NCBI GenBank assembly: GCA_027604505.1
Contig: JADIIX010000171.1
Coordinates: forward strand, 1 to 39,898
DNA length: 39,898 nucleotides
Source of the DNA: Gonapodya sp. JEL0774
Taxonomy: Eukaryota
Reading direction: 5' to 3'
Shown: piece after piece, positions 3,980-37,275 of the stretch
How the letters are laid out: each line of letters begins with the position of its first letter
Numbering within the stretch: position 1 is the stretch's first letter
Notes under the pieces: generated by a model
Database searches by the model: none
Told to the model about the DNA's origin: nothing
Seen by the model: the letters and a program-made list of their open reading frames with translations, nothing else
Position numbers and translations under genes: made by a program

Positions 3980-4358
3980 TACATCATGTAACCAACCTGC
4001 AAAAGAGAACAGTGTTTGTCGCTCACAATTTGCTATGTATGTGCTCGAATAATCGCCTTGTGCGAACATGCCGTTTCACACTTTCCCTGGTGTGTCTGTG
4101 GTCACTATCGTTGCACGACGAGTCACCGGAGACAACGATCCTCCGGATGGTTAGCTCAAAAGCCAGCGTTTTGGGGGATTCCCGAGGCTGAAGCTGCAAA
4201 ATCTCAATCTCAAAGAGATTATATCGTTTTTTTGTTCCCTACAGTCTTAATTCAACGGTGTTCGCAGAGGTGAATCGGAAACATTTTGGCCGATGTTGAA
4301 AAGCAATTCTAACACATCATTCCACAACTCTCCTTTTGTGCCGTCTTGCAGTTTCACC

Positions 4359-6277: not shown

Positions 6278-6528
6278 TTATTGAGATACCTTGTAGTGTG
6301 GCGTGCAAATATTCGACATTTAGTTACAGCTGGATTGAATTTACAGGTCAAGTGAAGAGGTGGACACCAATATAGAGTCTTTAATAAACTTTGGATGACA
6401 GTGTGATACATTCTTGGCGGGCTGAACATAAGTGACGCTCCGCCTTCAAGGTATTATTCGTTTCGTAGCGCACATTCAACAGCCGAGAGTCATCGAACTA
6501 AACCCCAGCGAAAAGAGAGTCTCTGAAG

Positions 6529-9421
6529 ATGGAACGCACTCTTCATGGACTGATTTTCCTGGCGGTCCTCGCGGTTCTAGTTACCCCCTATCACACCGTA
6601 TCGGCAGCTTTGTCCCCCGCTGCCACCAAAGCGCAGGGCGTCGCCACGTACCAACAGCTTCTCAATTTCTCACTCTTTTTTTTTGACGCACAAAAACTGG
6701 GGACCCTCCCACCTGATAACCCATTCTCTTGGTGAGTGTCCGCGGCAGATAATCGCATTAGCCGATGGGCAATATTGCATCGCACACACCAGAGGGTATC
6801 ATGGAGCGTTCGCTTGGTACATGGCGGGTGTCATCGGACACCGGTGTTGGTCACTGGCATCGTAGCCCTTGACGCTGCAAAGCTCAACATTCGAGGTCAC
6901 CTTCACCGTTTCTGCCCCTTTTGACCCTCTCCATTTCTTCAGGCGTCGGTCAGCAGTCGAACTGGATGGCGGGGACTCGAAAGTTGACCTGGGAGGAGGT
7001 TACGCCGATGGCGGAACATACCTCAAGTGCACTTTCCCGCTCGCTCACGCGACGACAATGATGGCATGGGGTGGTATTGAGTTCTGGGACGGGTACTCCA
7101 AAGCTGGACTTGGTGATAAACTCATCGCGGTTTTGAAGTGAGTCACGTGGTGTGTCTCCTTGCGTTCAATGCTCACGGGTTGAAGGTTCTTCTTTGACCT
7201 GAAGGTGGTCCACCGACTACCTTCTCAAGGCCTCGGCGACACCTACTCTGTTGTTCGTTCAGGTTGGAGATCTTGGCGTGGAGTCTGGCAACTGGGGAAA
7301 CGATTCCTCCATTCCGACACCCCGCCCGTCTTTTGCCGTGGCCACCACAAACGCGACCGACATCGTGGCAGAAACCGCTGCCGCTCTCGTGTCCGCAGCG
7401 TCTCTCTTTCGACTTCATTCCTCCCTTCCTTCGAACTACTCACAAGCGCTTCTCGCGCGCGGCCTTAACTTGTATGCTCAGGCGTACAACTCCACCTCAC
7501 GACAGCGATACCAGGACTCTGCACCAGCTGCTTCTGGCACATATCCGTCTTCTGGGTATGATGACGAACTCATTTGGGCCACTGCTTGGTGCACCTACGC
7601 GACTCAGGTGTTCGCTTTCAATTCGACCAATACACCTTTAAGCAACACAACGGGCAACGCGACAGCACCAGTTCCCGCCGAAAATCTTACACGAGATCTT
7701 CTCGCCTCTCGTACACTTTCACTGTATTCCACCGCATCTTGGAGCAACAGCACATCTTACTCTCCACCATTTTGGGACAACAAGATTCCTCAAATCTATG
7801 TTCTTCTACATCGACTTTTGAACATCACTCAGCGTGCCGATGAATGGGTTGCACCGCTGTATCAAACTACGAATGCAACTGCGCGTGCAGGCTTCTTCAC
7901 CCCTGGAGGACTGGTCTTCTGGGCGGGAGCCAGTGATACCTACTCATCCCACATCGCCTCGGAGGTTGCGTTTTTGAGCTTTGTCCTCGCAAAGGGTATG
8001 AGAGAACTCAACAGGAGTGGCGCAGATGCCGTGGAAAGCGTCGGAGTATTTCAACTTGGGTACCTATTGGGGAACAACCCCGCAGGTATCCCTTATGTGA
8101 GTGCTCGACACCACTACGTCATCTAATTTGTGTGTCACGGTGTGCTTTTCGTTTCCAATTCTTATCCAGGTTACTGGGATCAACTCTCTCTCACCTCTCC
8201 GCGCGTCTCATCGCCCTTCCTCCGGCATCAGTTCTCTAGCGTGCGCACTCAATTCGACTTCCCCCAATTTTTACCAACTGAGAGGAGCTCTGGTCGCGGG
8301 GCCAGATTCAAGAGATGGGTTCTCGGATGTCCGCGCAGCTTGGCAAGGTGGTAATCAGGTGCGTGACTTGATCGGTTCACAGCCGAGGGATCAACGGTCC
8401 GTTGGCGAACTTTGACAGACATGAAACTGTTTTGTACATCACGTGTCGCAAGCCCACTATCGTCGCGCAATCTGGCTACACCTCCGCTCTCGCCTACATT
8501 CTCCAGCAACCCGCATCATCACCGAATTTCCCACTGCTACCAGAAGTCTCTGCCGATATTCAACTTACTTTTTCGGACCCATGCGCCCCCCTTTCAAGCT
8601 CAGCCACTCCTCCTCCTCCTCCTCCTCCTCCTGCAGTAGATTCTGGAAGTAACAGGACCGCCATCGGAGCGGGTGTAGCCGCTGGTGTGGTAGTCGTTGT
8701 CCTGATGGGAGTCGCTGGCATCATCATGTACAATCGCCGGAAGAACATTGATGCAGGGGAGTCTGCCGTGCTTGGATCCTTTAGCAACAGAGAAATCGAG
8801 GTGAATGAACATGGACATGCAGCGGAACCTACGAATCACGACGGCGATGGTGCGTTTAGTGATAGCGGGACGCTTGTGGACAGAGGAAGCATGGACTTGG
8901 ACACAAGGCTAGCCATCGCAAGATCCCTAACGCCGAACGTGGGGACTGTGGAAACGCCAACCGGACAAGTTCCCGAGAGGCCTGTTTCGCCACGAACCAG
9001 AGCCCGGGAGGCATATCTAGAATCTCTTCAAACTCCGACGTGGTCAGGTTCGCTTGGGACAACTGGGGGTCAGCGTAGGAGATCTGGACGAGCACCGAAC
9101 CGCAATACATCGGGGAGAGAGCGCAGAACGCGAAGCACTGCGGAGGACACTGCTGGCGGAAATCAGACAACAAGCAGTGGGATTTTATCGTCGACCCTCG
9201 GGTCGCTGGGTTTGGGCCGAGTTCGAAGCATCCTTGGTCAGTCGAGAGTACCAGCTGCTGCGAGTGATGCGAATACCGCGTCCACAATTGAGCTCCTAAC
9301 GTCGGATGTTGAGACGACTGGCGATTTACCTCCTGCCCCCAATTCCACCGAAGTTGTAACGGCAAGACAATTGTCAGGTGAAAACGCGGCAGTGCTCTCT
9401 GCGGAGCAAAGGGAGCATTAG
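6529..9421 (+). CDS. Type I membrane protein: signal peptide, GH9 (cellulase-like) ectodomain, Pro stalk, TM helix, disordered tail
   Basis: GH9-type motifs across exons: SLFFFDAQKLGTLP, DLGGGYADGG, QVGD, ETAAALVSAAS, YPSSGYDDELIWA, FWDNK, QLGYLLGNNP, GALVAGPDSRDGFSDVR. TM AIGAGVAAGVVVVVLMGVAGIIMY followed by NRRK. Confidence 0.85.
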
Positions 9422-9881: not shown

Positions 9882-11626
9882 ATGACTTCGCGAATGTACC
9901 AGCGCTCACTTCGGCGGAGTCGATTAGTGATCCCTTTGCTGGCATGTGTGCTGATCATCCTGAATTTGCGGTTAACTCTCGGCCAAGTCATGTCCGTGAA
10001 TGGCTGCGTTTGCACGACGCCATGCACGGGTGGAGTCAATGCTGCCACGGGAAATATGGAATTTGTGAGCCTTGCAGTGCCCGTTTCTCCTAAACGACGT
10101 GGAACTGACATCCACCGTCCTATACGGACAGTTCTGTTTCACTGCCGCTACATGTAGAAACGCTATGCTGACTGCAGATCGAAGAACCTGGGATTTTTGT
10201 GTACCAGTGAGTCATTGGGGTTTTGCGTGGTTATTGGCGTGGATGCCCTGTGTGCTCAAATACCGAATCATCACGAAAGACGTCCTCCACTCTCACAGTG
10301 CAAAGAAGCTCCTCCAGTCTTGCAGCTTCGCGCTCTTCTTCACGCTCGACCGCCGCGATTCGTACAACAAGCTCTGCAGTGTTGACATCACAGGCCCCAA
10401 AACCTCCTCCCTCCCCTACCCCCATTGTGGCATCCACAGGCATACGAGTATCTGTCGGCAAACCATCACAAGCCTCAAAACCGACTTTCACCTCCTCTGC
10501 CGCTGCCGCTGACTTGGCTGCTGCGGCGACGTCCAACCGTATTGTCATGGGGTCAATTGTTCCGGATACCATGATGTCCACTGCCGCGCCAGCTGCTGCT
10601 GGGAGCAGTGCTACGATTGTCGGCATAGTAGTTGCACTGCTTGTCATGGCGGCTGTTGCGGGTCTTGTGGCACTCGTGGTGGTGAAGAGGCGTCACGACA
10701 GACGGGATCGAGAGGACACATTCGACCCAGCAAGATATGGATACGCAGTTTCAGGTCATTCATCAACTCAACGTCGCGATTGGGCGCAGTCGGCACGCTT
10801 TCCCGGGGATCCTCGTACTGGTCCTCCGATTAATATCCTCGTCTCCAAACGGCCAACCGATCAACGAAGGGAGCAACGCCCTTTCCCTGCCGAACTCACG
10901 ACCCAAACGCGCTCCGGCACCTCAGATCGTGGACCAAAGGCGAGAGACATGTCGCTTCCCCCAGGTGTTTTGTCAGCTGGTAGACGTGATGTGCAGGAGT
11001 CGCGCACTCGGCTTGGCGAGAGACCTCCTGCACCACCACCAAAGGGAATCAACGTAATAGCTGCAGAGGGCGGGATTATGCCGCACGAGGTGCCGCGTGC
11101 CTCAAATCGCAGAGGGTCGGCGGGAGATACACGTCCAATCGGAACAGACACTGTCGGGCACCGGAAGGTGCCTGCTTCACGAACGAGAAGTGATGACCCA
11201 ACATTGAATGCAATCAACTCTAAAGGGTCTGTAGATGTGCGAGGTCCACCGCCATCTCTTCCTCCTCTCGCTTCTTTCACATCTGATGCAACGCCTGCAA
11301 AGGGCACTCTTCCGTGGAAGACCCGTTCAGATCCGGTTGTCCCCACGCAGACACTAACTCACGGTGGTGGGAGCGACGCAAGCACTGGTCGGGATGTCTC
11401 GTTGGGCCCTTCACCACCGGAGACATCAACAAAAACGTACCTCGTTACTGGTGGCTACGAACCTCGTCGCATAGGCGGTATGCGATTGAGACCAGGACAG
11501 CGTGTTGTAGTTTGGGAGCGATATGGTGATGGATACGTTCTTGGCAGAGACGTGGCCACCGGGGTGGAAGGGGTCTTTCCGGCAACTTGCCTGGACGGTT
11601 TTGACGAGAAGGCGGACATTCCGTAG
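9882..11626 (+). CDS. Single-pass receptor-like protein A: Cys-rich ectodomain, Ser/Thr/Ala stalk, TM, Pro-rich tail, C-terminal SH3
   Basis: Exons 9882-10064, 10132-10206, 10280-11626 (phase 0). Signal LVIPLLACVLIIL; GCVCTTPC..|FCFTAATC..WDFC; TM IVGIVVALLVMAAVAGLVALVVV-KRR; SH3-like YEPRRIGGMRLRPGQRVVV..DGYVLG..GVEGVFPATCL. Confidence 0.8.
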
Positions 11627-11992: not shown

Positions 11993-13904
11993 ATGGTCCG
12001 CAGAAAACCTCGGCGAGCACCACCGTGGAGAAAGTCAGCTGGACTTGTCTGTGTGGCAGCTTCCCTCGCACTCTTGGGTCTCGTTGTGACCCCTATACTC
12101 GGAAATGCTCACACTTCGATACACGGATGCATTTGCCAGTCAGAATGCTTGGAAGTTACGCTGGCTGGACGGGTACGGACGAGACCTGTGAGTTGTCCCC
12201 TCCACGCTTGATATCACCCGGGTTCACAGGTTTTTTAACACACACCAACCCCCATCCACAATCAACCTGGGCACAACACGCAGTGGTGCTATACAGAAGA
12301 GGATTGCTTGGGGGCCATCAGCGTGGAAGGCGGAAGGAGCTGGGACTTTTGTAAGAATGTGAGCCTCCCGTTGGTTGCTGTTCGGGATGTCAACCATCAA
12401 CACCAACACGTCGCCAAAGTCTGCTCCGAAGATTGTACCACGACAGGCAGCTACCCCGACCGCAACCTCATTGACCTCCGCTTCCGCTCGCTCTTCTACA
12501 ACCGCACAGCTGTCTTCAACAATGCAGAGCACATTTGCTTCATCTGCCGCCACTTCAGTCATTCTTACTGTGTCGTCAGCTTCTCGAACATCTACGATGC
12601 CTTTGGTGACTGCGGGCAGCGTTCCCGTAAGCTCCGAAACCCTCATTCTCGCTCTCGGCACGACGACAAAGCTCTCTCCTTCGATGGCTGCCGCCGCCGC
12701 TGCAGCCGAGACTACTTCTACGAGTGTCGGGATAATTCTTGCGGCCGTTGGGGTTGCTGCGGTTATAGGTCTCGCTGCTTTGGTGTGGATAAAGCGGAAG
12801 CGGACCGACGAGGAAGAGCCTCCCAAGCCTCCTCGGAACCCATCAGGACGTGGGCTCGGTCGCTCACGCAGTCTGCTGGGCTTTGTGTCTCAGGCTGCGG
12901 CAGTGAATGATTTGGGGGAGATGGCGACGGGGAAGCGGGCGACTGGTCCTCCGAGTTTCATTATAGGGCGAAGACGAAGTGGATCACGGAGTTCTGGACC
13001 CCAGCCACCTCTGCCAAAGCCCCCGTCGAATCGTATGGAGTCGAACCAAGGAAGATCGAGCGGACTTCAAAATGACACATACAACAGGTCCGGTTCGTAC
13101 AGACCAGTCGGACCACCCCTTCGTTCTCGCGAGGAAACTTCCAAATTGAATCCGGAGGCGTACTCTCAGCGTCCGTCCGTGCGGCCAAATATGGCGCAGT
13201 ATCCCTCCCCTCGCCGCAACTCCTCCTCTACAAATAACGGATCCTCGCTTGCGCCACCACCTCCACCTCCGAAGGATATCCATCTTTCTTCAGACTCTTC
13301 CGCAGCACCGTCGAGATCAAAGTCGCTGGTTCGACCTGCACCCTCAACTAATCCGTACCGGTCTTCCACGGCCCCTACTGGAAAGGCCCCGCAAGATCCT
13401 TCGTACCAGCGAGCGGGTCAAGCTCGTGCACCGGAGCGAGGTCGAGACTCCGAAATCACATACCAAGAAAGTCGTCGACCCACACATCAGCGATCTTCTA
13501 GTGCGGGTGCATCCCTGCGTTCGGACCCATATCGACAGGAACAATACCCAAGCCAACGTACCGCCAATGCAAGCCCATCCCGCCGGTCTACCTACGATTA
13601 CAAATCCTCCTCAGTTTCAACAAATCGCCCACCGTCTCAGGGTCCACGTCCTTACTACAGTAGAAGTGGAAGCGGAACCTCTGCACATCCATACCCGAGA
13701 GAATCTTCGTCCGCGCAACCCCCTCCTCGACCACAGTCATCGGAGAAGCTTCGTACATCCCCGCCGCCAAGTGGATTCGACGTTCGTGGGCCTCCAGCCG
13801 ATCCAGGTCCTCTACGCACCAGGCCATCACAGCCGTCGAGTCGGGGTAGATCCAGCATGGGTGATCAGCGATTGTCGTCGACTCAGGACCAACAACTTCG
13901 CTGA
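11993..13904 (+). CDS. Single-pass receptor-like protein B, tandem paralog of A, without SH3
   Basis: Exons 11993-12187, 12284-12358, 12420-13904 (phase 0, same positions as A). GCICQSEC..RP|WCYTEEDC..WDFC; S/T stalk; TM VGIILAAVGVAAVIGLAALVWI-KRKR; long P/S/R-rich tail. Confidence 0.8.
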
Positions 13905-14631: not shown

Positions 14632-15972
14632 ATGGCCGACAACCTCCCAAACTTAATAGACGCCACAAATTTCCAACTAGACGATGTTTTGCTCCAAGAA
14701 TTTGGCACGTCCATTCAGAAAGATGCATTCAACCCTGGACCAGACGGAAAGTTTGCGAGTATCGCAAAGTATTTTTACCCAGAGCACTCTGTGACTTGAT
14801 ATTGTACTGCTCAGATTTACCATTTAAGACTACACCACTTCGATGTGGACCTGGAAAGAATGCAGAAAATGGCAACAAATTCTGATCGGAGAAAGGAGAA
14901 CGAGCATCTTCTCAATCGACTTGCATTGGAAAGCAAGGGGTCTCCTGATCTCGAGGTTCTAGAAAAATGCATTATTTTCGGAAAGCATGCGATGCGGCTG
15001 ATCATGCAAATTCCAAACGTGTACACACCTGATGAACGGCAAAAGTTCTGGGACGTTGCAAAGCCACTCGGTGACTCCTTACCATTCCCTGGGACAACGG
15101 AGAAATCTGTTCATTTGTTTGAATGGGCTTGCCACAGCAGTGGAATCTACCAAACTGCTCCAACCCGGGGCCTGGCAGATGACAGCTTCACACGATTGAT
15201 GTTCAAGGGAATATCCAAAGAGAGAGGCCGAGGCATTCTCCACGACATATCGGAGCTCTCAAGCAAGGCTGTCTACATTTCCTGGCACTTTGACAAACCG
15301 GTTTTCGACAGAAATGCCAATTATTTCCAGGCCTTGCGGGACAAGCCTGAGGAGGAAAGGACAAAACCAAAACCAATTTACGCTCTGAAGGATACCCCTT
15401 ACACCACTGTTGCATTGAACTATGGACAGCTATCTAGGGAGGGATTGGAAGAAGAAGGTGGTTCCCATTATGATGTGAAGGATGGGAAGAAGGGAATTGC
15501 GACTGTGGTTTCCTTCTCACGGCTTTGCCGCACTTGCAAGGGAAGGAAGACAAGAATGGGGTTTCTGCTCTTTCTTTCTGATGGGAGTGTGAAAGTTGTA
15601 TGGGTGAGGCTGAAGCCAGGAGATCAGGTTGTGTTCCTTGGTGGTCTCATGTGCCACAAGGTGCAGTCTGACTGTGAGGATTGCGAGGAGGATGCACTGA
15701 GGATGGTGCTGTTCACCCACCAACAAGTGATAAATTTGGCGGCAAAGGAGTGGAACAAAGTGAAGAGGCTTCCATTTGGTGAAGCAGATCCAGAAAAGGC
15801 CCAGGAAATTTATGATGAGGTTCGTACGCGACCTGGGCAGGGAGCGCAAGATCGAATGAAGTGGAGGAAACAGCACAAGAATTTCAAACAACACAACGTC
15901 CAGAAAAAGTTGGAACGGAAGGCGAACGCGGCTTTGAGGAAGACCCTGGATGGTGGCGTTTCTCGAACTTAG
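14632..15972 (+). CDS. Fe(II)-dependent dioxygenase, TET/JBP-like
   Basis: Open 375-codon exon 14845-15972 with TTVALN, HYDVKD (HxD at 15466-15474), LKPGDQVVF, distal His in LMCHKV and LRMVLFTH, in the family's motif order. A 5' exon from ATG 14632 with intron 14751-14828 is tentative. Confidence 0.62.
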
Positions 15973-16919: not shown

Positions 16920-17226
16920 GAGCATTTGCCGATTACACGAGCCCATTCTGGCACCCATCGTGGTCTGACAGCAGTGTAGGCATATACATGTACTTGCATC
17001 AACCCATTGTCATTTTCCGACACCGCTACCCTATCACCCCACTCAGACGCCTTAGTTGCTTCCTAACCAACACGTCTATTAAAGACCATTGCCGTGCGTC
17101 CCAGAATCACTGATTACCGCCCAGAAACCCGCAGTAGGACGAATCATTATTCTCTGTAATAAGCCCAAGTATCCCACGAGATGTATCGTGCCTTGGAATA
17201 TGCCGAGAGGAAGATCGATGAGATGC
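16920..17226 (+). repeat. Diverged dispersed repeat, copy 1 (copy 2 at 36987-37275)
   Basis: Collinear shared blocks such as GAGCATTT..CACGAG..TTCTGGCACC, CACTCAGAC.CCTTAGTT, CCAGAATCACTGATTA, CAAGTATCCCAC, GTATCGTGCCTTGGAAT. Confidence 0.8.
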
Positions 17227-18982: not shown

Positions 18983-21141
18983 ATGAAGTTCGGAAAGGAG
19001 CTACAAAAGGCAGTGGAAGAACTGCCGGTCGAATGGCGGCCCCACACGGTGGACTATAGAAACGTAAGATCTGTTCGCGGTTGCCTGTACTGTGGTTCGT
19101 GCTGAATCGATGTCGTGGGTTGTTTCAAATAATGAAAGCTCAAAAAATCTCTCAAAACCGTGCAACTCTCCCTCGAAGAACAACTTGCAGGACTTCCACT
19201 CGATGTTGAGGTGGTGTACACCCTCGCTGCCGGTATGTCGACCTTCTCTCTGCTGTGCTTATAGTTTCATCACCCGAAGGTCATGCGCTCTGTTCTTGCT
19301 TTCAGAGGATATTGAACACCATATCGACTCATTCCTTGCCATCTCTAATAAATCGATTGAACTTTGTGACTCAGCAGATCCTTCCGTCGACCAACGCGTG
19401 CCAAATCCCAACATACTGTGGGAGACACCCGTCGCCACTCAAAGTGACGAAGCACGCGATAGCTTGCTCGGCACTGGCTTCGTTAGTCATGAAGGAATAC
19501 CGAGGCGTCTCTCCGCTCATTCAGTGTCTGTCCCTGTCGTCTGGAAGCGGCCACGACGATCCACGTTTGGGGCTGACAATACTTCGCGTCCAAACAACGT
19601 CCAGTTAAACGAGGCTCCAGAACTCCCAGCTTCGGAAAGTGTTGTCATCAGCACTAGACGTCGGTCATTCAGTGGCATGGAAGCATCCGACACGACTCCG
19701 ATCGACACTAATTCGCCCTTCTCCACACATGATGGAGGAAAGCCACCATCGGACCTCCTCCTCGCAACCGAACATACCAGTATCCCGCTTCAAGGAGATT
19801 CTGCATTTCTTACTAATTTATCTAAGAGCATACAAGGCATCTCGGACTTTGAAAAAGGACTGGAGCACCACTTCCAGGAGCAAATCGATACGATGGCCAA
19901 AGTGATGGTCTCGGTGACAGATCGCAGTGGAAGTGCTGATCACCACCTTTTGGTGCTGGGACGGGATGATCCATCATGTTCGCTCAGTGATGACTCCCGG
20001 GGGGCCAGCACGTCGTTGGATATTCAGAGGCTGCGTGGTGATACACATGGGCCACCAAGTCGGACATCAATCTCACACAGTCGTTTTGCAATACTCCGGC
20101 GTCCCGGTGGTCGCAGCAAGCACCGAGACTTGTATGCTTGGCGCGCCTTGCTCGCCCTCTACATCTCCACCTCCCCGTTCATCGATCTGTCTACACACCA
20201 TGAACGCTTGCTGACTGATGTGACCGACTGCATGTCTGAGTTCCAGGAGAAGGCAAGACATATGGCGGGGGACTTCAAGATCAATGGGAGTGCGGCGCTC
20301 TTGGAGGATTTCTTGCGTCTGAACTGGGAGTGCATCCGAGTGAGGAGATTCGGGGAGATCAACTCACGGGCGATCACAAAGATTTTGAAAAAGCACGATA
20401 AAGTAACCAACTTGCAGTTCGTACTGCGTTCCGATTTTGCATCTTTGCTTTGTTCATTGGCTTGATATCCTCGTTCTCGTATCTGTCTTACAGAGCCACC
20501 AGCCCGTTTCAATCCCTTCTCGGTTCCCATCCATTTTTTACCGCCGCGCCGTTTCGCCATCTCATCACCACTATCGCCGAGAACTTGATCACTGTAGTGC
20601 CTCAACCTGACGATTACTCGTGCCCGATCTGCTCCGAAATTCTTTGGCGGCCTGTCAAGCTCCGATGTGGTCACCACTTTTGTCACATGTGAATAGGACG
20701 CCGGTGGATGGGCATCAACTTCGCGTCGTCTTGTTTTGGGAGATATTGAATTCTTCTTCTCAATTTGGATTCAGGTGCATCGTGTTCTCTTCGACACGAG
20801 GTCGCAGACGTGACTGTCCGCTCTGTCGATGCCCCAACGCTTTATACGAAGCCGGACTGGAGAATATCGACGCTGCAAAAGTCGAACTCATGAAAAAGTA
20901 AGTTGGTATTACTTGAACCCAAAAGCTGAAACACATTTTTACATTGTTTGGACCTGTTGTCACTTCTTCGTTGCGTTCCCTTATGATCACATCTAGATGG
21001 TTCCCAATTGAAGTTGCCGAGCGTCAACGTGTACTGGATGACGAGGCAAGTCGACGGGAGGCTGAAAACATGATGTTCATCTTGGGTTTCGATGTTAGTG
21101 AAGAAGGCCAGCGCCGCCCTCGAGCATGCTCTATCATGTAA
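18983..21141 (+). CDS. SPX-RING E3 ubiquitin ligase (plant NLA / fission yeast Pqr1-type architecture), multi-exon
   Basis: SPX start MKFGKEL..EWRPHTVDYRN|LKK, SPX end EINSRAITKILKKHDKVT; RING CPICSEILWRPVKLRCGHHFCHM|CI..DCPLCR; ends ..RACSIM-stop. Confidence 0.9.
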
Positions 21142-24099: not shown

Positions 24100-26539
24100 T
24101 CACACCTTGATTTCCGCCGCCGTCAAGGCCTTTTTCTGGTCCCACTTGCAGTGGGGACACAGTCGGGCGCCAGGTTTGTGGGGCTGAGGCGGCGATGGGC
24201 GGGTAGGCAAGGACGTGGGGTGTGGTGGGTTGAAGTGGGCGAGGGGGGCGTGGAAGTGGGAGCAAGAGTAGTGCAGTGGCCCGGGCCGGCCGTGGTATTT
24301 GGTACGTGATGGTACAAAAGAAGAATGATGCGTGGGAGTTTGATTCGCGAGTGTGAGAGAGGGTGCAGATCGAGAGGGATCAGGTCCGTACAGTACAGAA
24401 CAAAAGGGGTGGGGACGTGTGTGGGATGGATAAGAGACCGACGCAAGTTCATGTGATTTAGTGTGAAGGGAGAGACAAGGTCCAGTGGGGAGCGGGAGAA
24501 TGGGAAAAGGTAAGGATGAGCACCTGACCCCAGCCAAAGTGTGGGAACCTGGCCACCGCACGCACGCGGAGGAAGTGGCAAACAGCACATAACAAGCGCA
24601 CCACGCAAAGGATTCATATAGAAGTAGGAATGCTCAGGGGAGTGATGCCATGCATGACACGCTCACTGGCATCCAGCGATCGCGGCTTCTGTCCCATTTA
24701 CAACTCCGGCGAAGGCGCATATTAATATCCCACCTTCCGCACATATCCACCCCAAATACATCCACCATACGAAAAACTCCCACCCCAGTGAGGCACCCCG
24801 CTCGTGATGGAAAGAAAAACCCACCTCCAAACACGCAGGGCACTGTTCCGTGACCGGTGGCGGGGGAGTCGGTTCTGCCGGCTTGGGTTTCGGGTAGATG
24901 GAGATGAGGAGCTAGAATGCAGCCGTGGGCCGGTGGGACCGCCACGATGGCAGAGGTGCAACATAAAGGCAGAGAGGGGCCGAGAGGGGGGTCGACGTCA
25001 GGAATGCGCCGGTGGGGTGATGGGGTTTGGAAGGAAATTTTGGTGAGATGGTGCGTGTAAAGGGAAGGTGTACGGCTATGTGATGGAAGTAGGTGAACAT
25101 CCAATGTGGATGCGTACTTATGCGTGTGCGTTCGGGGGTGGGGGTTGGGGTCCCATGTCCCTGGAGGAGCAAGTTGGTGCGTGGGCCGCGTCACCGCCAC
25201 CCCGATACCGTTGCAGTGTGGGGACCACCGTCCGGGTCAGATTCAAAAGACCAAATCCGCCCTCATTGCAGGCCATACACCAAACGACCGCACCCGAAGA
25301 GCTCCGAGCATACCAATAGAGGAAAGTGCATACACTTAGGTACAGCTTGCGCAACTTTCAGTGTCCACTCAAACGGGACTATCTTTCATCAGGATTGGTG
25401 ACGCTGCGGTGACGCCAATCCGGGGACATTGAGCTGGGGACTTTACACATTTCCGTTCCCCACCAGTCCGCCGCGCTGGCCTGGCTCGATCCCACTGGCG
25501 CTCGCACACCAAGGAAACTCCCTTACCTTGAAAATAACAAACATGACGAGGCATACGATGAAGAACGAGAGAAAAGTGTTGACGAAACTGCCGTCTTGTT
25601 TTGGTGGGTCCCGTGTGTTCACGTAGTGGATTGAGAGTGTGGGCAGAGACGCGTGTTACAAATCAGTCAACACAAAAGCCAGAAAAATTGAGTAGGGCAA
25701 ACACGATCGGCGCCCAGGGGACGGAAACGCAATGGATACATACAGTTCCAAGTGACCTGGTTTTCGGCCGCAACATTATGGTGGGGATCACAGAAGAGAG
25801 AACAGGGATGAGCATGCAAACATCAGTGGAGAGAGTGAAAACGTATCATATTGTCAGAAATTGTGTGCGCGTGCGTTCCACCGCCATTTGATTTAAGGTG
25901 CCCCGTAAGTGAGGACGACGCTCGAACCCCTGGCTCGCTTGCGAGCCACCAAACAATTCCCCCCAATTCTACAACTCACCGCCTCATCTCGTCTTGCCTC
26001 CTCCAGCGTCGGGTAATTCGTCTTTCCCGACTTTCCCGGCCTGAGCACAAGGTTTGCGTCGGGTAAGGACGAGTGCTGGGTAAAGAGGGCGACAAAAGGG
26101 GTGAAGAGATCCGTGACAGCTGAGTCGACGACGCGGGAGAAGGCGGCACCTGGGGGAAGGACGGTGCGGGTGGGTCCAGGATGCGATAAGGGATAAGGCG
26201 TATCGGCGTGAGTGAATGCGGGTGTTATGGGAGAGAGAAAGGTGGCAGAAACAACACGCCATCAAAAGTACATGCAGTAGTTCGAATAGTACAGCTGGTC
26301 CCAATCGTATCGGACAAAATGTCTCCCGGGTCAGTCATCCCACCGCCCACCATCACCACCACCCATCAAGCCAAAACGTGTTGCGCACCGATGATGACCG
26401 CGATGGCCAGATCAGCCACGTTTCCCCTGACGATAAAGGCCTTGAACTCTTGAAACAAGGACCGGGCTCCCTCGACCACGTGGGTGCCTGTCTCCCGCGC
26501 TTCTGCAAGGAGGGGGGTCGATGCGTCGTCAGTGGACAT
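24100..26539 (-). CDS. mscL: Large-conductance mechanosensitive channel MscL homolog, 190 aa, 6 exons, C-terminal CxxC..CxxC
   Basis: Exons 26539-26389, 26149-25980, 25756-25744 (13 bp), 25594-25527, 24911-24825, 24183-24100 total 573 bp. FQEFKAFIVRGNVADLAIAVIIG|AAFSRVVDSAVTDLFTP (TM1), VTWN|YGSFVNTFLSFFIV (TM2), CPACLE|..CPHC. Confidence 0.9.
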
Positions 26540-27058
26540 GGTTCCAGTGTATTTGAGTCGAAGGGTGGGGGACGCGTGTGTGTGGTGTGTTGTTTTGTCA
26601 CGGCTTCCAGAAGTCTCGACGGCTGGTGGATTGCAGGATCCAACGCTAACCACGGCGTCGAGGATTGTCGCTACAATGAAATGGATAGTGAAAAACATCC
26701 TTAAATATACCCTGAACTATCGCCTTTTTAACATCTCGAGATCATGCCTGTGACGCAATTCTGAACTTGGGAAAGCTTTCAGCTTGATATCACATGTATA
26801 TCTGGAAGGGAAAATTTCAAGAACTCTGTGGCTGGAGTGGTGGCTGCTAATTTGGGGGAGAAGTGTTGAAAACCCGAGTGTTTGTGAGCATCACCTCAGC
26901 TGGTGTCTGTCACACCTAAATTCGGAGGTCCGGCCCCTCAAGCGAATTTGGAAAGGATTGTTGTCCAAAATGGGTGGTCAGCATGGGACAGATCGGGGAT
27001 TGAGAGAGTGGGACTGGGACGGGGGTTGGGTGGTCCTTGAGCGGGAAGACAGATTTCT

Positions 27059-27830
27059 TCTCAATTAACGCGCAGGTGAGCATTCATACACGTTTCTGTG
27101 TTGCTCTAGCACCGCTACTGATTCTACCAAGTACAACCTAGTTTCATTATGGGCATACTGGCGCCTGCTATGCTCGAAATCATTCGTGGCGACCTGAAAC
27201 ACCGCTGCTCTGGTTTGCACCAAACGTTCTTTCACGACATGAAGAGCGGGGCGCGGCCACATGGTCTCGGCAAAAAGGACAGCGATGGATTGGAACGAGC
27301 TCTGTCCCTCGTGCGGGGCGACCAAGACGCATCACCGGCAATGAAATGGGGCAAGAGTGGAGATAAGGCTACCCTAGACGAGGATGGAAACGCTGGATCC
27401 GTCGAGAGCGGGACGATCGAGAACAACAGCAACTAAGAGAAGCTGAAATCTTCAACGTCGTGTTTCTCAAGAAGTTCAATCGCCCTCCAGGCTCCTCGGA
27501 AATTCAGAGGTACCTGCACTCGATCGTAGTGATTGTGAATTATCGCGACCAACGGTCCAATTGCTGGACCTGCCAATTTTGTTCGTGCAATGAAGCTCCA
27601 CCTCGCCAGAATGACGAGAGAGGAGCTGGATGCTCTCTCTGCAGCCGCCGATTTGCCAGCCGCAGAGTCGGAGCTAGCGAAGAAAGAAGTTGGTGTGTTC
27701 TTACGGCCGGAGTGGAGTGGATATGATTAGAAAAAGGCACCGCAGGGAGGGGTGGCGGATGGTGAGTGGGCCACGTCGTGTTGTTCTCGTTGCCGGACAA
27801 CACTTAACATCACATCAGAACGTGTTCTGA
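27059..27830 (+). repeat. ~770-bp direct repeat, copy 1; decayed gene-like sequence
   Basis: Collinear with 32981-33755 with long identical stretches (e.g. GGATGGAAACGCTGGATCCGTCGAGAGCGGGACGA; TTTCTCAAGAAGTTCAATCGCCCTCCAGGCTCCTCGGAAATTCAGAGGTACCTG). Frameshifts and stops differ between copies. Confidence 0.93.
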
Positions 27831-28306
27831 TAACCTCCACCAATGACACCAACTTGGGCCTGTGGAGACTCGAAAATTTGACAGTCGCTTGATTTTGAGA
27901 ATGTCGGGGACGGTCTCATTTTTGCGTGGCAGGGCCGCCGTGAGCGAAGTCCTGCACAAACTCCTCTCGTCAAGCATACTCTCTCGCTCCACAGAACCTC
28001 TGCCAAAATCCGGGTGAAAAAAAGAGAAATTTCGACGTTTTCTGGAGGATTCCAAATTAATTTCATACAAAAAATAAAATTCAGGGTGTGTGGGTGAGCA
28101 ATGACTCTGTGGTCAGTCCATCTCTCTCCCTCTATATTGATATTAGTGAAGTTCACACGACGAAAAATACTACTAACAACATAACAATCCCAACTTATCT
28201 GGTAATCCTATTCACCTTTGGTGCTCCACGCAAACACAAAACTGAAAACAAAACCAAAACAAAACAAAACGCAGTACAAACGTCAATCTATCAACTTCAA
28301 GCTTCT

Positions 28307-31300
28307 TCACACCTCAATTGTGCGTCGAGAATTTGCAAGTGCTTTGATTGCCCTTCTCCCAGCCTCACCAATCGAGTTGTCTGTAGTACAGAGAGGAGAG
28401 GAGACGGTGGGTGTGTGAATGTGAGTGAGACTCTGATCGGGAACGAGAGGTCAAACTCTGATACTCACCACTGACATGAAGCGACGTCAAGGTGGAGTTT
28501 GTCTTGAGGGCCTCACCAAGCGCTCCGGCACCAGCGTCACTGATCGAGTTGTCTAGAGTAGAGAGAGGAGAGAGGAGAGAGGAGGCAGTGCGTGTGTGTG
28601 TGTGTGACGCTGAGCGACAGCGAGAGGTCAAACTCTGATACTCACCACAAAGGTTGAGTGACGTCAAGGTGGAGTTTGTCTTGAGGGCCTCAGCAAGCGC
28701 TCTGGCACCAGCATCACCGATCGAGTTGTCTGGAGTAGAGAGAGGAGGGAGGAGAGAAGAGACGGTGTGTGTGTGTGTGTGTGTGACGCTGAGCGACAGC
28801 GAGAGGTCAAACTCTGATACTCACCACAAAGGTTGAGTGACGTCAAGGTGGAATTGGTCTTGAGGGCCTCAGCAAGCGCTCTGGCACCAGCGTCACGGAT
28901 CGAGTTGACTGGAGTAGAGAGAGTGCAGAGGAGAGAGGAGATGGTGGGTGTGTGTGTGAGAATGAGACTCTGAGCGAGACCGAGAGGTCAAACTCTGATA
29001 CTCACACGCCATATTGAGCGACTTCAAGGCGGAATTTGTCTTGAGGGCCTCAGCAAGCGCTCTGGCGCCAACCTCACCAATCGAGTTCCCTGTGTTCGGG
29101 TGGGACGGGGTGGTGGTAAAGTCATACGATAGAAGACACATTGACATCTCAAGGCGTAATGCTCCATACGCCCTGCTGGACTCACAGGCTAATTTTATTG
29201 TCCTGAGGGCACTATTAGTTTTGAGAGCATGGGCAATTGCGCTAGTTCCAGCATCTCCAACTGACTTCCCTTTGGTGGAGGGGCAAAAGTTGGAGGAGGA
29301 GGAACAAGTAAGAAGGGAGTAGGGCTTCTACATTTCGCCACTGCTTGGAGAGAGTAGAAACGCGCAATTTGAGATGCAACTCACACTGCAGATTAAGTTC
29401 GGTTTCGTGGTTGGCTATGTCCTGCAGCGCTTTGGATAAAGCACCTGCCCCGGCGGCTTTGCTTGTTCTGACATTCACTAGTAGGTTTGCGATTGTGAAG
29501 GATTCGTGTTAACACCAAGTGAATTGCGTGGTGTCTGCCAACTCACGGAAACGCCATGTCTCCAGGTCGTTTGCCGATAAAATTCTGGCGGGATCATCTT
29601 CCGGTAGTTTCTTTTCCCGGATATGGTGAACACTCTTCAGAAGGGCTTTTGCACGTTCTAGCTGCCCTTGGGAAAAATATGCTCGAGCGAGCGCATGCCG
29701 GGCCGCCAGCAGATCCGGATGGTCTTCCAATAAGACTCTTTCCCTAGCAGCAACAACAAGCTCCAACATGTTCACTGCCTTGTCTACTTGTCCAGAATAC
29801 TCGTATGCGTGGGCGAGCTCTTGCTGCGCCTCTAGCAGAGGAATGTTGTCTTGTGTAGGGGCTGGATATCGAAGACGTTTGAATGTTTCATCCAGCAGGG
29901 CAAGCCAACCCTCCCAAGGCTTTCTCTCGTCCCCTTCTAGCTTTCGACCTGTCAACACCACAGAAAGTTGTTGTCTTCCAGAGACGCACGTTTGAAGCCA
30001 TAGAGCTGCTTCTGCGAATCTTCCATCAGAGTTCAAGCACCGCCCAACCAGAAGACACAGGTCGTATTTTAGTTCCACCCCGTTTCCTTCGTCACTTCCC
30101 AGTACCTTCACGGCGTGCGGGAGGTACTCCCTCCATCGCTCCCGATTCTCCCACTCATTGGTTGGAAATATTCTCCTGATGTGTGTGATTGCCTCTTCCA
30201 TCTTTTTCGAAGCAAGGCGCTGCGTGCACAACCAGTGCCATGCCGCCAGGTGCACGAGACGGTGGAGATCGTACACTTCATCCTCTCTGTTGATTTCTTC
30301 TGAGCGACGTGACACGAATGCGTACCCAATGAGGGTACCGATTGCTCCTTCAATTTTCACGGCGCCACCGGCGGTGGGCAGGATGGTTCGAGGGATGGAC
30401 TTCCATTCGATACAAGCCATGAAGGCCAAGATGTCTTCTGAGAGAGGATTTTCTCGGCGGATCTGCTTGAACGAGACCACCCATGTTTTGGCCACTGAAT
30501 TATGAGATTCCTCATAACGTGTTTGGTCACAAAAGTCTTCGCTTAGAAGTTCCGTCATATCTTCCTCCAGCAGTTCCCTATACCGCTTGATTGTTATTGA
30601 GTTAATATTCAGGTACGCTGCTGCTTGGGCGATCGCCACCGGAAGGTTGGTTAGGTCCTTCAGGAGGTTGGAAGTGTTCAATTGATCTCCCAGCAATTCT
30701 GTTCTTGTGAGGGACTTCCTGAAAAACTCTGCCGCCTCCTCGTCGCTCATTGCTTGCATATTGATGGTGTCAACTCCTGCAAGGTATGTCCCCACCTTCA
30801 GGGGGCGGGTTGTGAACAGAAGAAGACGTTCTTGTTCGCTCTGTGGAAGGTAGTAATTAAGGCCTCATCCCTGCTTGGTGTGAAACACTACATCTGCGTC
30901 GTCAGCATTGTCTATGATCAAGAGCCACTTTCCGGCTGCTTCTTTGCTCAAATAGCGCTTGACAACCTCCTTGATGTCTTCCGTTGCCCCAGTCGTTTGA
31001 GAGACACCAACTTTCATAGCCACCTCCTTGCACGCCTGCTCAAAGCTCTCCATGCTGAGCGCAGGGAACCAGAAGATTGAGTAGTCTTGATATGTGTCCT
31101 TGACTCTGTACGCAAACTCGAGTGCAACTTGCGTCTTTCCCACTCCACCGAGTCCCACAAGAGCCGCCCTCTGACAATCTTTATTGTCAAAGAGCTTTCT
31201 GTTCAAGGTTGCGAGGACGTGATCCCGCCCTACAAACTGTTTGTTCCTCGAAAAGGGAATGTAGTAGCGGGGCGGGGAGGAGCAAGGAGTCACACCAACT

Positions 31301-31549
31301 TCGGGGTGGGAAGCACTAATGACATTCATGATATTGCAGCGGTCAAAGATACGAACAGTAAGCACGCGGAGCCTTGAATGGTTCAGCTTGCCTTGAGCCG
31401 TTGTAGAAGGATGATCCAACTTGAGCACGCGCATTGTCGCCAATGTGCAGGGACCCTACTGAGTAGGTGATATTATGCACTATTTGCGGAGGCAGCGATG
31501 GATTTGGAAAGTGCGGTTCAGCAGCAACAGCGGTGGTGGACATCGCCAT
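28307..31549 (-). CDS. NLR-type STAND protein: HRAM-like motif, NB-ARC, TPR, RNI-like LRR array (~843 codons, 9 exons); one in-frame TGA, possibly a pseudogenised allele
   Basis: Exons 31549-31357 (first intron tentative), 31298-29547, 29477-29385, 29269-29186, 29089-29006, 28908-28825, 28729-28646, 28552-28469, 28380-28307. P-loop GLGGVGKT, Walker B WLLIIDNAD, FTTR, LPVAIAQAAAYL, LHRLVH; TPRs with EDHPD; LRRs LTSLNLCDNSIGDAGARALAEALKTNST. TGA at 30867-30865. Confidence 0.8.
28340..29100 (-). repeat. Tandem array of ~172-181-bp exon+intron units, each encoding one 28-aa LRR; introns contain (CA)n and CT-rich tracts
   Basis: Exon starts at 29089, 28908, 28729, 28552, 28380. Four consecutive introns begin with the identical 25-mer GTGAGTATCAGAGTTTGACCTCTCG. 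Confidence 0.95.
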
Positions 31550-32980
31550 ATCCAAGAACAGGAACAGTGCCGATAAGACCGTCTGGAAAGGAATTCAAAA
31601 GGGACGCGGTCCCGTCAACATCAATACAGAGCAGACAGTAATAGTAATATGCATCACGCGACTGGAAACCTGCTTAGGCCGGTGGCACTCAAAACAGCTG
31701 GAAAGGAACGAGCCCCCACCTGCCACACTGGAATGGAATGGAATTGAATGGCGGCGAAACCTAACTCTCACAATGGAATCAAAACGCGACCACCCTTTTT
31801 TGGATTTGGAATGGAGGGCGGGATGCATTTTTGTTCTTTGGACTCGGCTTCCCCTGCTCTCCTTTGGATTCCGCGTTTGGACTCATTCGAACCAACACTT
31901 TGTGGGCCCGCAACGGAGAATGGACTGGAGAATGAACTCGAATTTGCTGCGCAAAATAGCACAAGCGAAGGGTTGGCAATGCATTGGACTGCAGTGGATG
32001 TGTTTCCATCCCAATCACTGTCAGGCCCGTTGTTGCTCCATCCGTTTCACAGAGCCCCGTCATCCTGGTCAAAGCCACGTTCTCTCAACTAAATGAAAAC
32101 AACTCAATTCTGAACTCCGTGAAATTCAGGCTTCACATTTTGAAGAGCGTTGTTGGAAATCGAACAGCGGATTCCCGCCATTCGAGCGATTTTGGAAAGT
32201 GGTGCGCCGGCACCCACGCGATACAACTCGCTGTGTGTGTCGGGTAAAATTTTGGATTCTCCCAACACAAGCTCGCCGAATTGTGCCGGAGGAAGGAGTC
32301 TGGATCGAATCATCCCCCAAACCAAGAATAGATTCCTGAAAGCGAATCATAGAGGCACCGTCCCCCGAAAGCAATTGACCCAACGCAGCGACAAGCTCGG
32401 CGTTTGCGGAGGGAGTGGCTGGATTAGCGGCAGAGTGCTTCGCTTTCTTGTTTGAAGACATCTCTGATTTTTGAGAAGATGCGGAGCGTTTGTACCGCGC
32501 TCCCACCGGAACCTCGAAATATTAACAAAACTCACCATCTTCTCGTGCGCTTCTCGTCTCCCCTTTGCTTCTACGACTGCCTGTTGTCTCTTGTGTCGGA
32601 CCTGAAACCGCACGCCCCGCTGCCGTTATCCTCGCGGTCAGACCAACAATGCTTGACCTTTCAAACTCATCGCGTCCCGCGCCAAGTTTCTGCTCTCACT
32701 CTTAGAGAAAGAGCTGTTTCCCTCTCGCGCGGGTTGCGTTTTTGATTTTCCTGGGGAATCGCATCGTTCCTTCGTGTCCATCGGAAACCTACCTGTCAAT
32801 CGCACAATCACAATAGTACGTTGTCCCACATCCCCCCTTTTCTTTTCTGGTTTCAATCCTTCCTGTAGCGTATTCAGCTTTCAACTCAGATGGCATCATC
32901 ATCCCCCACTCCCCTACCCGGTCTTCCAGTCTTCGTTGGTAACCCCCGGAAGTCCAAGGATGTGTCAAAGGGTTAGAGGA

Positions 32981-33755
32981 TCTCAATTAAGGCGCAGGTG
33001 AGCAGTCATACACGTTTCTGTGTTGCTCTAGCGCCAATACTGATTCTACCAAGTACCACCTGGTTTGGCTATGGGCATACTGGCGACTCTTTAGCTCGAA
33101 AGCATTCGTCACAAACTGAAACAGCGCAGCCACGGTTTGCACCAAACGTTCTTTTCACAACGTTAAGAGCCGGGGACGGCTACCTGGTCTCGGCAAGAAG
33201 GACCGCGATGGATTGGAACGCGCTCTGTCCCTCGCGCGTGGCGACCAAGACGCATCACCGACAATGAAAAGGAGCAAGAGGGGGAGCTATGGCTACTCTA
33301 GACAAGGATGGAAACGCTGGATCCGTCGAGAGCGGGACGATCGAGAACAACAGCAACTAAGAGAAGCTGAAATCTTCAACGTCATGTTTCTCAAGAAGTT
33401 CAATCGCCCTCCAGGCTCCTCGGAAATTCAGAGGTACCTGTACTCAATCGTAATGAATGTGAATTATCGCGACCAACGGTCCAATAGCTGGACCTGCCAA
33501 TTTTGTTCGTGCAATGAAGCTCCACTTCGCCAGAATGACGAGAGGAGCTGGATGCTCTGTCCGCAGCTGCGGACTCGCGAGCGAAGGAGTTGGGGAGCCA
33601 GCGAAGAAAGAAGTTGGTGTGTTCTTAAGGCCGGAGTGGAGTGGATATGATTGGAAGAAGGCACCGCAGGGAAAGGTGGTGGATGGTGAGTGGGGCAGTT
33701 TGTGGTTTTCGCGTTGCCAGAGGTTCAATATCACATCAGACGGTCTTCTGTACCC
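32981..33755 (+). repeat. ~770-bp direct repeat, copy 2
   Basis: Begins TCTCAATTAA..GCGCAGGTGAGCA as in copy 1 and stays collinear to ..ATCACATCAGA; offset between copies is 5922 bp. Confidence 0.93.
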
Positions 33756-36986: not shown

Positions 36987-37275
36987 GAGCATTTTCCGAT
37001 CGCACGAGTCCGTTCTGGCACCATTCTGTCGGACAACGGTGTGGCCATATGCTTCAGCTTCTGACACTGCTACACTCTCACCGCACTCAGACACCTTAGT
37101 TCCTCATCAACCAACACGTTTGTTAAAGGCCCGTGTCGTGCCTTCCAGAATCACTGATTATCCCGTGAAAACCCACCCCAAGCTCCATCATTGTTCTCAG
37201 TAAGAAACTCAAGTATCCCACCAGACGTATCGTGCCTTGGAATCTGCCGAGTGGAAGAATGATTGGTTGCGATGC
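36987..37275 (+). repeat. Diverged dispersed repeat, copy 2 (copy 1 at 16920-17226)
   Basis: Same orientation and block order as copy 1; one frame reads QVSHQTYRALESAEWK versus QVSHEMYRALEYAERK. Confidence 0.8.

Follow-up and report, generated by a model that had tools for sequence, protein, structure and literature searches.

A putative leucine-rich repeat NLR family in the chytrid Gonapodya sp. JEL0774, with a probably inactivated copy on contig JADIIX010000171.1

The stretch of DNA analysed here (the window: 39,898 nt, contig JADIIX010000171.1) comes from Gonapodya sp. JEL0774, a monoblepharid chytrid and early-branching aquatic fungus, and carries on its minus strand, at 31549-28307, a NOD-like receptor (NLR) gene whose nine exons join an NB-ARC domain, degenerate tetratricopeptide repeats (TPRs) and leucine-rich repeats (LRRs) in a single frame of 837 codons. 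The locus is probably a recently inactivated copy within a Gonapodya family of NLRs, likely immune receptors, in which a transferred Pezizomycotina-type NB-ARC-TPR gene would have been spliced to one-exon LRR cassettes replacing TPR sensing. On a broader claim we are evenly divided: that the NLRs of JEL0774 are the first in fungi to bear true LRRs, an acquired ascomycete amyloid-signalling NB-ARC-TPR protein having been refitted with LRR cassettes in an independent transition that preserves the steps from NB-TPR to NB-LRR.

Gene model and paralogs

A preliminary description of this DNA had proposed that a phase-1 intron of 69 nt lifts the apparent stop of the NB-ARC-TPR frame and joins it to a run of phase-1 LRR exons that lacks a convincing ATG of its own and ends at a TGA. 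Each of these points holds (Table 1): intron 2 excises the stop at 29511-29509 and is also used by the NCBI model of the gene (HDU93_002552, hypothetical protein); one 93-nt, five 84-nt and a terminal exon make up the LRR run; and none of the four ATGs within 29546-29186 is in the LRR frame. Introns 2 to 8 (seven in all) each open with GTGAGT and are each in phase 1, and those between LRR exons resemble one another. The three domains expected of the spliced protein were all matched by Pfam, with NB-ARC (2.6e-10) and TPR_10/12 in exon 2, including two TPR_10 matches, and LRR_6 (5.7e-23) in the spliced model, the LRRs being of the ribonuclease inhibitor (RI)-like type with 28-residue helix-strand repeats. 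NB-ARC also exceeds the Pfam cut-off in the read-through exon and in eight paralogs, no TIR or RPW8 domain is matched by Pfam in the window gene or its paralogs, and the TPRs sit between NB-ARC and LRRs.

The NCBI protein is identical to ours from mid-NB-ARC to the C-terminus and starts in a different frame of exon 1, a start that we rejected. The frame opened by the ATG at 31549 joins exon 2 through a GC-AG intron. The preliminary description mentions neither this first intron nor the amyloid-like motif of exon 1. The annotated read-through of two paralogs, HDU93_006776 and HDU93_004571, is compatible with a donor at the position of intron 1, and the exon 3 stretch has a homologue in HDU93_006545 and HDU93_005986, in the latter of which it is modelled as a helix and strand of the LRR arc. 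The model joining NB-ARC-TPR to LRR is well supported at the DNA level, with splicing predicted from sequence, and we infer that this gene and its family are spliced in this way in vivo.

Table 1. Features of the NLR locus and its flanks (window positions)
Feature	Position	Strand	Description
Exon 1	31392..31549	-	ATG at 31549; in-frame join to exon 2; short N-terminal signalling exon (putative)
HET-s-related amyloid motif (HRAM r0-like)	31409..31471	-	21 codons in exon 1; assigned by pattern
Intron 1	31316..31391	-	76 nt, GC-AG, phase 2, inferred
Exon 2	29547..31315	-	1769 nt, intronless: NB-ARC, winged helix, 2-3 degenerate TPRs
NB-ARC	about 31215-30487	-	within exon 2; Walker A at 31155-31132
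In-frame TGA	30865..30867	-	codon 203, just past Walker B in NB-ARC; sole lesion found among 837 codons
TPRs, 2-3 degenerate	about 29820-29590	-	within exon 2
Intron 2 (TPR-to-LRR junction)	29478..29546	-	69 nt, GTGAGT...CTACTAG, phase 1
Exon 3	29385..29477	-	93 nt; cap helix and first LRR strand
LRR exon 4	29269-29186	-	84 nt, one 28-residue RI-type repeat
LRR exon 5	29089-29006	-	84 nt, one 28-residue RI-type repeat
LRR exon 6	28908-28825	-	84 nt, one 28-residue RI-type repeat
LRR exon 7	28729-28646	-	84 nt, one 28-residue RI-type repeat
LRR exon 8	28552-28469	-	84 nt, one 28-residue RI-type repeat
Terminal exon 9	28307..28380	-	final partial LRR; stop TGA 28309-28307
Direct repeat, left copy	27059..27797	+	roughly 740 bp; flanks NLR gene; open frame broken
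Direct repeat, right copy	32981..33721	+	176-codon open frame 33120-33650, W-x-C-x2-C motif

The search for paralogs suggested in the preliminary description shows that the NB-ARC-TPR-LRR architecture recurs in this genome. Nine NB-ARC-TPR proteins of JEL0774 (HDU93_002552, HDU93_006545, HDU93_005986, HDU93_002786, HDU93_006776, HDU93_004571, HDU93_009184, HDU93_004230 and HDU93_004231), spread over eight contigs, form one clade whose members are 43-54% identical. Its support is 0.988 (Shimodaira-Hasegawa) in a tree of 279 rows (4/268 rows excluded for short matches; HDU93_002552 excluded) and 96 in a quick tree of 49 rows, and five of the proteins group at 92/84 in a 28-row tree holding 5/9 Gonapodya rows and 17/32 named ascomycete rows. 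When 257 LRR units were made into a profile, it matched four of the nine proteins and none of 259 other NB-ARC relatives, strongly for HDU93_002552, HDU93_005986 and HDU93_004230 and weakly for HDU93_006776 (4e-4). In their gene models, both HDU93_004230 and HDU93_005986 combine an unbroken NB-ARC with several LRRs, the former in the order amyloid-like motif, NB-ARC, TPR and about ten LRRs (its multicopper-oxidase fragment, a Cu-oxidase tail, is probably a fused neighbour). Three further proteins (HDU93_006545, HDU93_009184 and HDU93_004231) are partial models that end, by eye, in the cap or the first repeat; HDU93_009184 has the order PNP_UDP-NB-ARC-TPR, with PNP_UDP replacing the amyloid motif. 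HDU93_004571 has canonical TPRs (3 units) and no LRR match. The genes HDU93_004230 and HDU93_004231 are adjacent NLR paralogs on a single 21.5-kb contig.

Beyond the genome, no LRR match was present in the DNA covered of 80 metagenome loci (33-49% identity) or 80 prokaryote loci, a metagenome scan with HDU93_005986 as query returned no relative, and in the ESM Atlas the ten clusters listed for that protein were all of NB-ARC-TPR types, with no LRR family among the matches listed. A 60-residue query covering the cap and first LRR retrieved only HDU93_002552 among 93 candidates; it missed even HDU93_005986 and is therefore uninformative.

The fusion could be an artefact of annotation, with the NB-ARC-TPR gene ending within the gap of 69 nt and a separate or dead gene supplying the LRR exons. 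NCBI does terminate HDU93_002786 in the homologous gap (its annotated end runs into the intron, with residues compatible with the intron-2 donor of the window gene), and HDU93_004571 has no LRR. We nevertheless regard such an artefact as very improbable: the exons lie only 69 nt apart, with a canonical donor and the phase of all LRR introns, the LRR block has no in-frame ATG, and the same order is repeated in paralogs with NB-ARC parts that share only about 50% identity and with dissimilar cap sequences.

The in-frame stop of the window copy

The NB-ARC-TPR frame had been described as open up to 29509; it is in fact interrupted by the TGA at codon 203. Of the receptor first proposed, the single gene model recurring in paralogs is supported, and a working receptor at this locus, with a nonsense codon at 203 of 837, is not. 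Four paralogs (HDU93_006545, HDU93_005986, HDU93_002786 and HDU93_006776) have an arginine at the aligned position, and the TGA would fit one C-to-T change from an Arg codon; in the models of HDU93_005986 and HDU93_004230 NB-ARC is unbroken across this region. Because the TGA aligns with Arg in four paralogs, we consider a young pseudogene or a null allele the most likely state of the window copy. It has no frameshift and retains every nucleotide-binding motif, and synonymous differences exceed non-synonymous ones in 6/6 pairs of LRR exons (the pairs not being independent), so that the loss of function looks recent. From such a copy one would expect either a fragment of 202 residues or degradation of the mRNA; with the TGA in NB-ARC it would not perform the signalling proposed below.

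The NCBI model bypasses the TGA through a 93-nt intron (30888-30796) with a weak GTGTTT donor, dropping 31 residues. We rejected this intron and take it as an artefact, since its donor is unlike the GTGAGT of the gene and the 31 residues are present in all aligned relatives. Recoding as selenocysteine was also considered: Gonapodya prolifera uses selenocysteine machinery, and most fungal selenoprotein genes have no detectable selenocysteine insertion sequence (SECIS) (10.1101/314781; this and the other papers are cited for the portions of their text covered here). The paralogs have Arg and not Cys at this site, and no Rfam match, SECIS included, was found within 27300-33000 at E<=1; the position of the Arg in a loop and the lack of a nearby Rfam match disfavour recoding, which we rejected.

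That the copy has this architecture and is functional, the TGA being an assembly error, one allele of a diploid, part of a small intron that is removed, or a selenocysteine codon, is in our estimate unlikely. The single lesion in 837 codons, the intact nucleotide-binding motifs, the intron that NCBI places over the TGA, the selenocysteine machinery of G. prolifera with SECIS undetectable in most fungal selenoprotein genes, and the NLR pseudogenes of Podospora that are intact in certain strains (PMC13449251) are all in its favour. It would, however, require frame-keeping introns with non-GTGAGT donors that remove residues conserved in all relatives, or recoding at a loop site occupied by Arg in the paralogs. 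The young pseudogene or null allele is the reading we retain, and the intact paralogs are used below to consider how the family would work.

Sensor, signalling motif and origin

The preliminary description had also credited the receptor with two sensor types, which the repeats do not bear out. The window gene has one canonical TPR unit and LRR-bearing members have 0-1, whereas the median in 116 relatives is 5 (range 0-10). Among LRR exons 5-8, 64-79 of the 84 bases are alike, as are 73-87 of the 93-97 bases of their introns, and units of roughly 180 bp, exon plus intron, therefore appear to have been recently duplicated. With TPRs few and degenerate while LRR cassettes were recently duplicated, it looks as if the variable sensor moved from TPR to LRR, in a sensor swap rather than a pairing of two sensors. 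A dual-sensor receptor with both TPRs and LRRs active would account for the persistence of two TPR_10 matches, modelled with high confidence, and for an inter-TPR region that differs in length among paralogs; it is improbable given the depleted TPRs of LRR-bearing members (HDU93_004571, without LRRs, has 3 canonical units) and the confinement of near-identical repeat duplication to LRR exons. Recombination between paralogs is suggested by HDU93_006776, which is mosaic-like: 96 of its first 120 aligned residues are those of HDU93_005986, agreement is 15-30 of 60 in most later stretches, and the last TPR region resembles HDU93_009184 more closely (28 versus 15 of 60).

Structure prediction, also proposed in the preliminary description, was run on HDU93_005986. 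The AlphaFold2 model (65-row alignment; pLDDT 83.9, pTM 0.77) places NB-ARC, winged helix, TPR helices, cap helix and an arc of three helix-strand LRRs in series; a single-sequence fold is poor beyond the LRRs (pLDDT 41.8). The nearest Foldseek matches of the AlphaFold2 model are NOD2 (top), Apaf-1 and plant resistosomes, with whole-chain template modelling (TM) scores of 0.2-0.44. The LRR exons have their best matches in Mortierellaceae RNI-like proteins and animal NLRC3-like repeats. In many of these Mortierellaceae proteins, which are 600-1300 residues in length, a long RI-type LRR array is combined with a large N-terminal half that bears no Pfam label, a Walker A pattern being found in one exception only; they may constitute another receptor-like family.

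At the N-terminus, exon 1 would encode a HET-s-type motif, r0-like by the pattern of HET-s-related amyloid motifs (HRAMs), through which the family would signal. That pattern spans 21 residues (hydrophobic at 5, 8, 10, 16 and 18, R/K at 15, G at 19; PMC4518210), and exon 1 satisfies 7/7 positions; it also has five residues in a row, as well as the hydrophobic pattern, in common with a Trichoderma r0 motif (PMC4518210 supplement). Shuffling the exon produces the pattern in 9/100,000 cases, and a six-frame scan of the window (79,792 positions) meets it twice. A similar motif lies in the annotated frame of HDU93_004230 and HDU93_004231, and in HDU93_006776 and HDU93_004571 an overlapping frame allows or forces its hydrophobics and Gly. 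In HDU93_002552, HDU93_006776 and HDU93_004571 NCBI starts in the wrong frame across this exon, and the motif is therefore hidden from proteome scans. Two weak matches of exon 1 to exostosin among PDB sequences were judged to be due to chance.

Taking NWD2/HET-S and other STAND proteins as a guide, we expect that the TPR-LRR tail of an intact member would keep an ADP-bound NB-ARC shut until the LRR arc binds a non-self or damage ligand, upon which nucleotides would be exchanged and a ring formed. Clustered N-terminal HRAM motifs would then seed a beta-solenoid that converts an effector bearing a matching C-terminal motif, a HeLo-like pore former or a PNP_UDP enzyme, and the cell would die; HRAM-type motifs are known to pair with effectors of these two kinds (PMC9815663). 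In HDU93_009184 the PNP_UDP effector would lie on the same chain. Duplication of the roughly 180-bp exon-intron units and recombination between paralogs would vary LRR number and sequence.

Where did the NB-ARC-TPR part come from? Among outside relatives, 34/259 have an organism name and all 34 are Pezizomycotina; transfer of the NB-ARC-TPR part from an ascomycete is therefore likely. Identity is 38-49% to these Pezizomycotina relatives and 23-32% to prokaryotic ones. In the 28-row tree the NB-ARC subfamily is split from prokaryotes at 100/100, and Gonapodya shares with 15/17 ascomycete rows a branch with 98/99 support. Exon 2 is intronless across 1.77 kb, though the contig is intron-rich. The LRR introns share the GTGAGT bias of the contig: the window has 39 GTGAGT where 24.3 are expected (a count reached in 0/100 shuffles), both in the NLR gene and in the genes around it, and no excess of GTAAGT (9 versus 10.5 expected). 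The best reading is a transfer old enough for the clade to have diverged to about 50%.

Several observations weigh against the reading set out so far. As to origin, a topology in which the ascomycete rows group to the exclusion of Gonapodya is not rejected by an approximately unbiased (AU) test (p=0.0835), Gonapodya has no settled position in the 49-row tree, the family is multi-copy, and organism names cover just 34/259 relatives. As to the LRRs, HDU93_004571 sits inside the clade without any, the LRR-bearing family is known from gene models with a predicted splice junction, the LRR part of the AlphaFold2 model has a pLDDT of 58-75 and the junction one below 50, and the search for a source of the LRR exons gave its best matches in the Mortierellaceae and animal NLRC3-like repeats, with no donor gene found. 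As to signalling, the exon-1 motif was spotted before the pattern was applied and is not recognised by Pfam, PDB sequences or the ESM Atlas; HDU93_004230 and HDU93_004231 carry Gln at pattern position 8 and so miss it; the pattern was found upstream of 0/72 metagenome relatives; and no HeLo, PNP_UDP or other effector gene occurs among 159 open reading frames of the window (short exons could escape), nor any effector with a matching motif inside its 39,898 nt.

The architecture may be real and its origin different, through vertical inheritance with loss elsewhere or a second organism in the JEL0774 assembly. The AU result agrees with this, as do the depth of the Gonapodya clade, the lack of any G. 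prolifera protein among the named matches and the fragmentation of the assembly (contigs of 5-40 kb). Such an origin nonetheless appears doubtful to us. The nine proteins are spread over eight contigs, and no named ascomycete has a close match to any of them; GTGAGT richness without GTAAGT excess marks the NLR gene and its neighbours; the window holds an intron-rich GH9 gene, and GH9 is reported in G. prolifera (PMC6690862). Basidiomycetes, mucoromycetes and other chytrids are all absent from the 34 named relatives. The deposited record gives the contig as fungal, one of the points on which the preliminary description could have failed. An old transfer from an ascomycete is the reading we keep.

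Genomic setting, known systems and significance

The NLR gene lies between direct repeats (Table 1) with 78-96% identity by segment, a spacing of about 5.92 kb and no Pfam match, which may mark a duplication that placed the gene here. Adjoining it is an intron-containing gene for MscL, a large mechanosensitive channel (25896-26540, minus strand; Pfam 6.5e-9), and upstream, at 32126-32461 (minus strand), a short ATG-led open frame without Pfam match follows an apparent GTGAGT intron at 32535. The remaining genes noted here are on the plus strand. At 6500-9421 the GH9 cellulase gene appears to run into a transmembrane segment and an extended tail of low complexity; after it come two further single-pass membrane proteins with low-complexity tails (10211-11626, with SH3, and 12363-13904). 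A 2-hydroxyacid dehydrogenase, a cytochrome P450 and an SPX-domain gene with a RING-like end occupy 2500-6350 and 18984-21141, and an intronless 390-codon open frame without Pfam match lies at 14800-15972. A 217-bp repeat (17010-17226 and 37054-37270; 77% identity, 20 kb apart) is possibly a mobile-element remnant.

The statement that described fungal NLRs lack LRRs agrees with the literature. A 2014 survey found no LRR among 5,616 candidates and no NLRs in chytrids (PMC4986451), and the absence of LRRs was restated in 2017, 2022 and 2025 (PMC5658179, PMC9815663, PMC12881547). A scan of 122 proteomes, G. prolifera included, that allowed for LRRs reports none in the text and supplements covered (its per-gene table lies outside these), and gives some chytrid species as few as one NLR (PMC12258605, 2025). 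The transfers of bacterial NACHT-WD40 genes into Mortierellomycota concern a different family (PMC11291939). The literature covered, subscription papers being outside its scope, yielded no account of these genes or of any fungal NLR with LRRs, and the NB-ARC-TPR-LRR architecture appears undescribed in fungi.

Among the closest known systems are the NB-ARC-TPR NLRs of Pezizomycotina (PMC4986451, PMC12258605), which have in common with the Gonapodya family the NB-ARC subfamily (38-49% identity), TPRs of the kinesin-light-chain type and, among their PNP_UDP, HET or amyloid N-termini, the two kinds present here (amyloid motif or PNP_UDP). The Gonapodya genes differ in their host, a monoblepharid chytrid, and in a reduced TPR array followed by RI-type LRRs, found in 0/259 relatives; in the window gene a long TPR array is not the sole repeat type, one canonical unit being combined with LRRs. 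With the NWD2/HET-S and HRAM families (PMC4518210, PMC9815663) they share a single N-terminal motif of HRAM pattern, but are NB-ARC-TPR-LRR rather than NACHT-WD40, with no adjacent effector gene found in the window, and occur in a chytrid, whereas descriptions of HRAM motifs concern Ascomycota and Basidiomycota.

Plant NB-ARC-LRR receptors (the ZAR1 and NRC resistosomes, TM about 0.40) likewise have C-terminal LRRs after NB-ARC; in Gonapodya TPRs intervene, the repeats are RI-type with 28 residues, NB-ARC belongs to a fungal clade and the N-terminus is an amyloid motif or PNP_UDP. The two would be convergent, not orthologous. Animal NLRC3 and NOD2 have the same 28-residue RI-type LRRs (45-57% identity across the LRR region), with one 84-nt exon per repeat in their genes, but combine NACHT with CARD and lack TPRs, in contrast to the NB-ARC, amyloid motif and TPRs of Gonapodya. 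In the candidate LRR-ROCO and NB-ARC-TPR receptors of brown algae (PMC11378527, PMC13449251), each exon likewise encodes one repeat, and exon duplication and shuffling are a source of diversity; the algal LRRs accompany ROC-COR and the algal TPRs NB-ARC, whereas in Gonapodya the LRR exons are attached to NB-ARC-TPR.

Although the window copy is probably dead, its paralogs carry the value of the finding. An LRR-bearing NLR family in a fungus of chytrid grade would, if true, break the standing rule that fungal NLRs have no LRRs, and would extend HET-s-type amyloid signalling to zoosporic fungi; the amyloid motif and PNP_UDP effector here would show that a cell-death signalling kit can cross fungal phyla. 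NB-TPR has been proposed as the ancestral form of NLRs (cited in PMC9815663), and this clade has TPR-only as well as TPR-plus-LRR members, so that the origin of NB-LRR would become testable by domain swaps. The stages of the route suggested for plant receptors, first with TPRs alone and then with a TPR remnant and LRRs, would in that case survive in the family.

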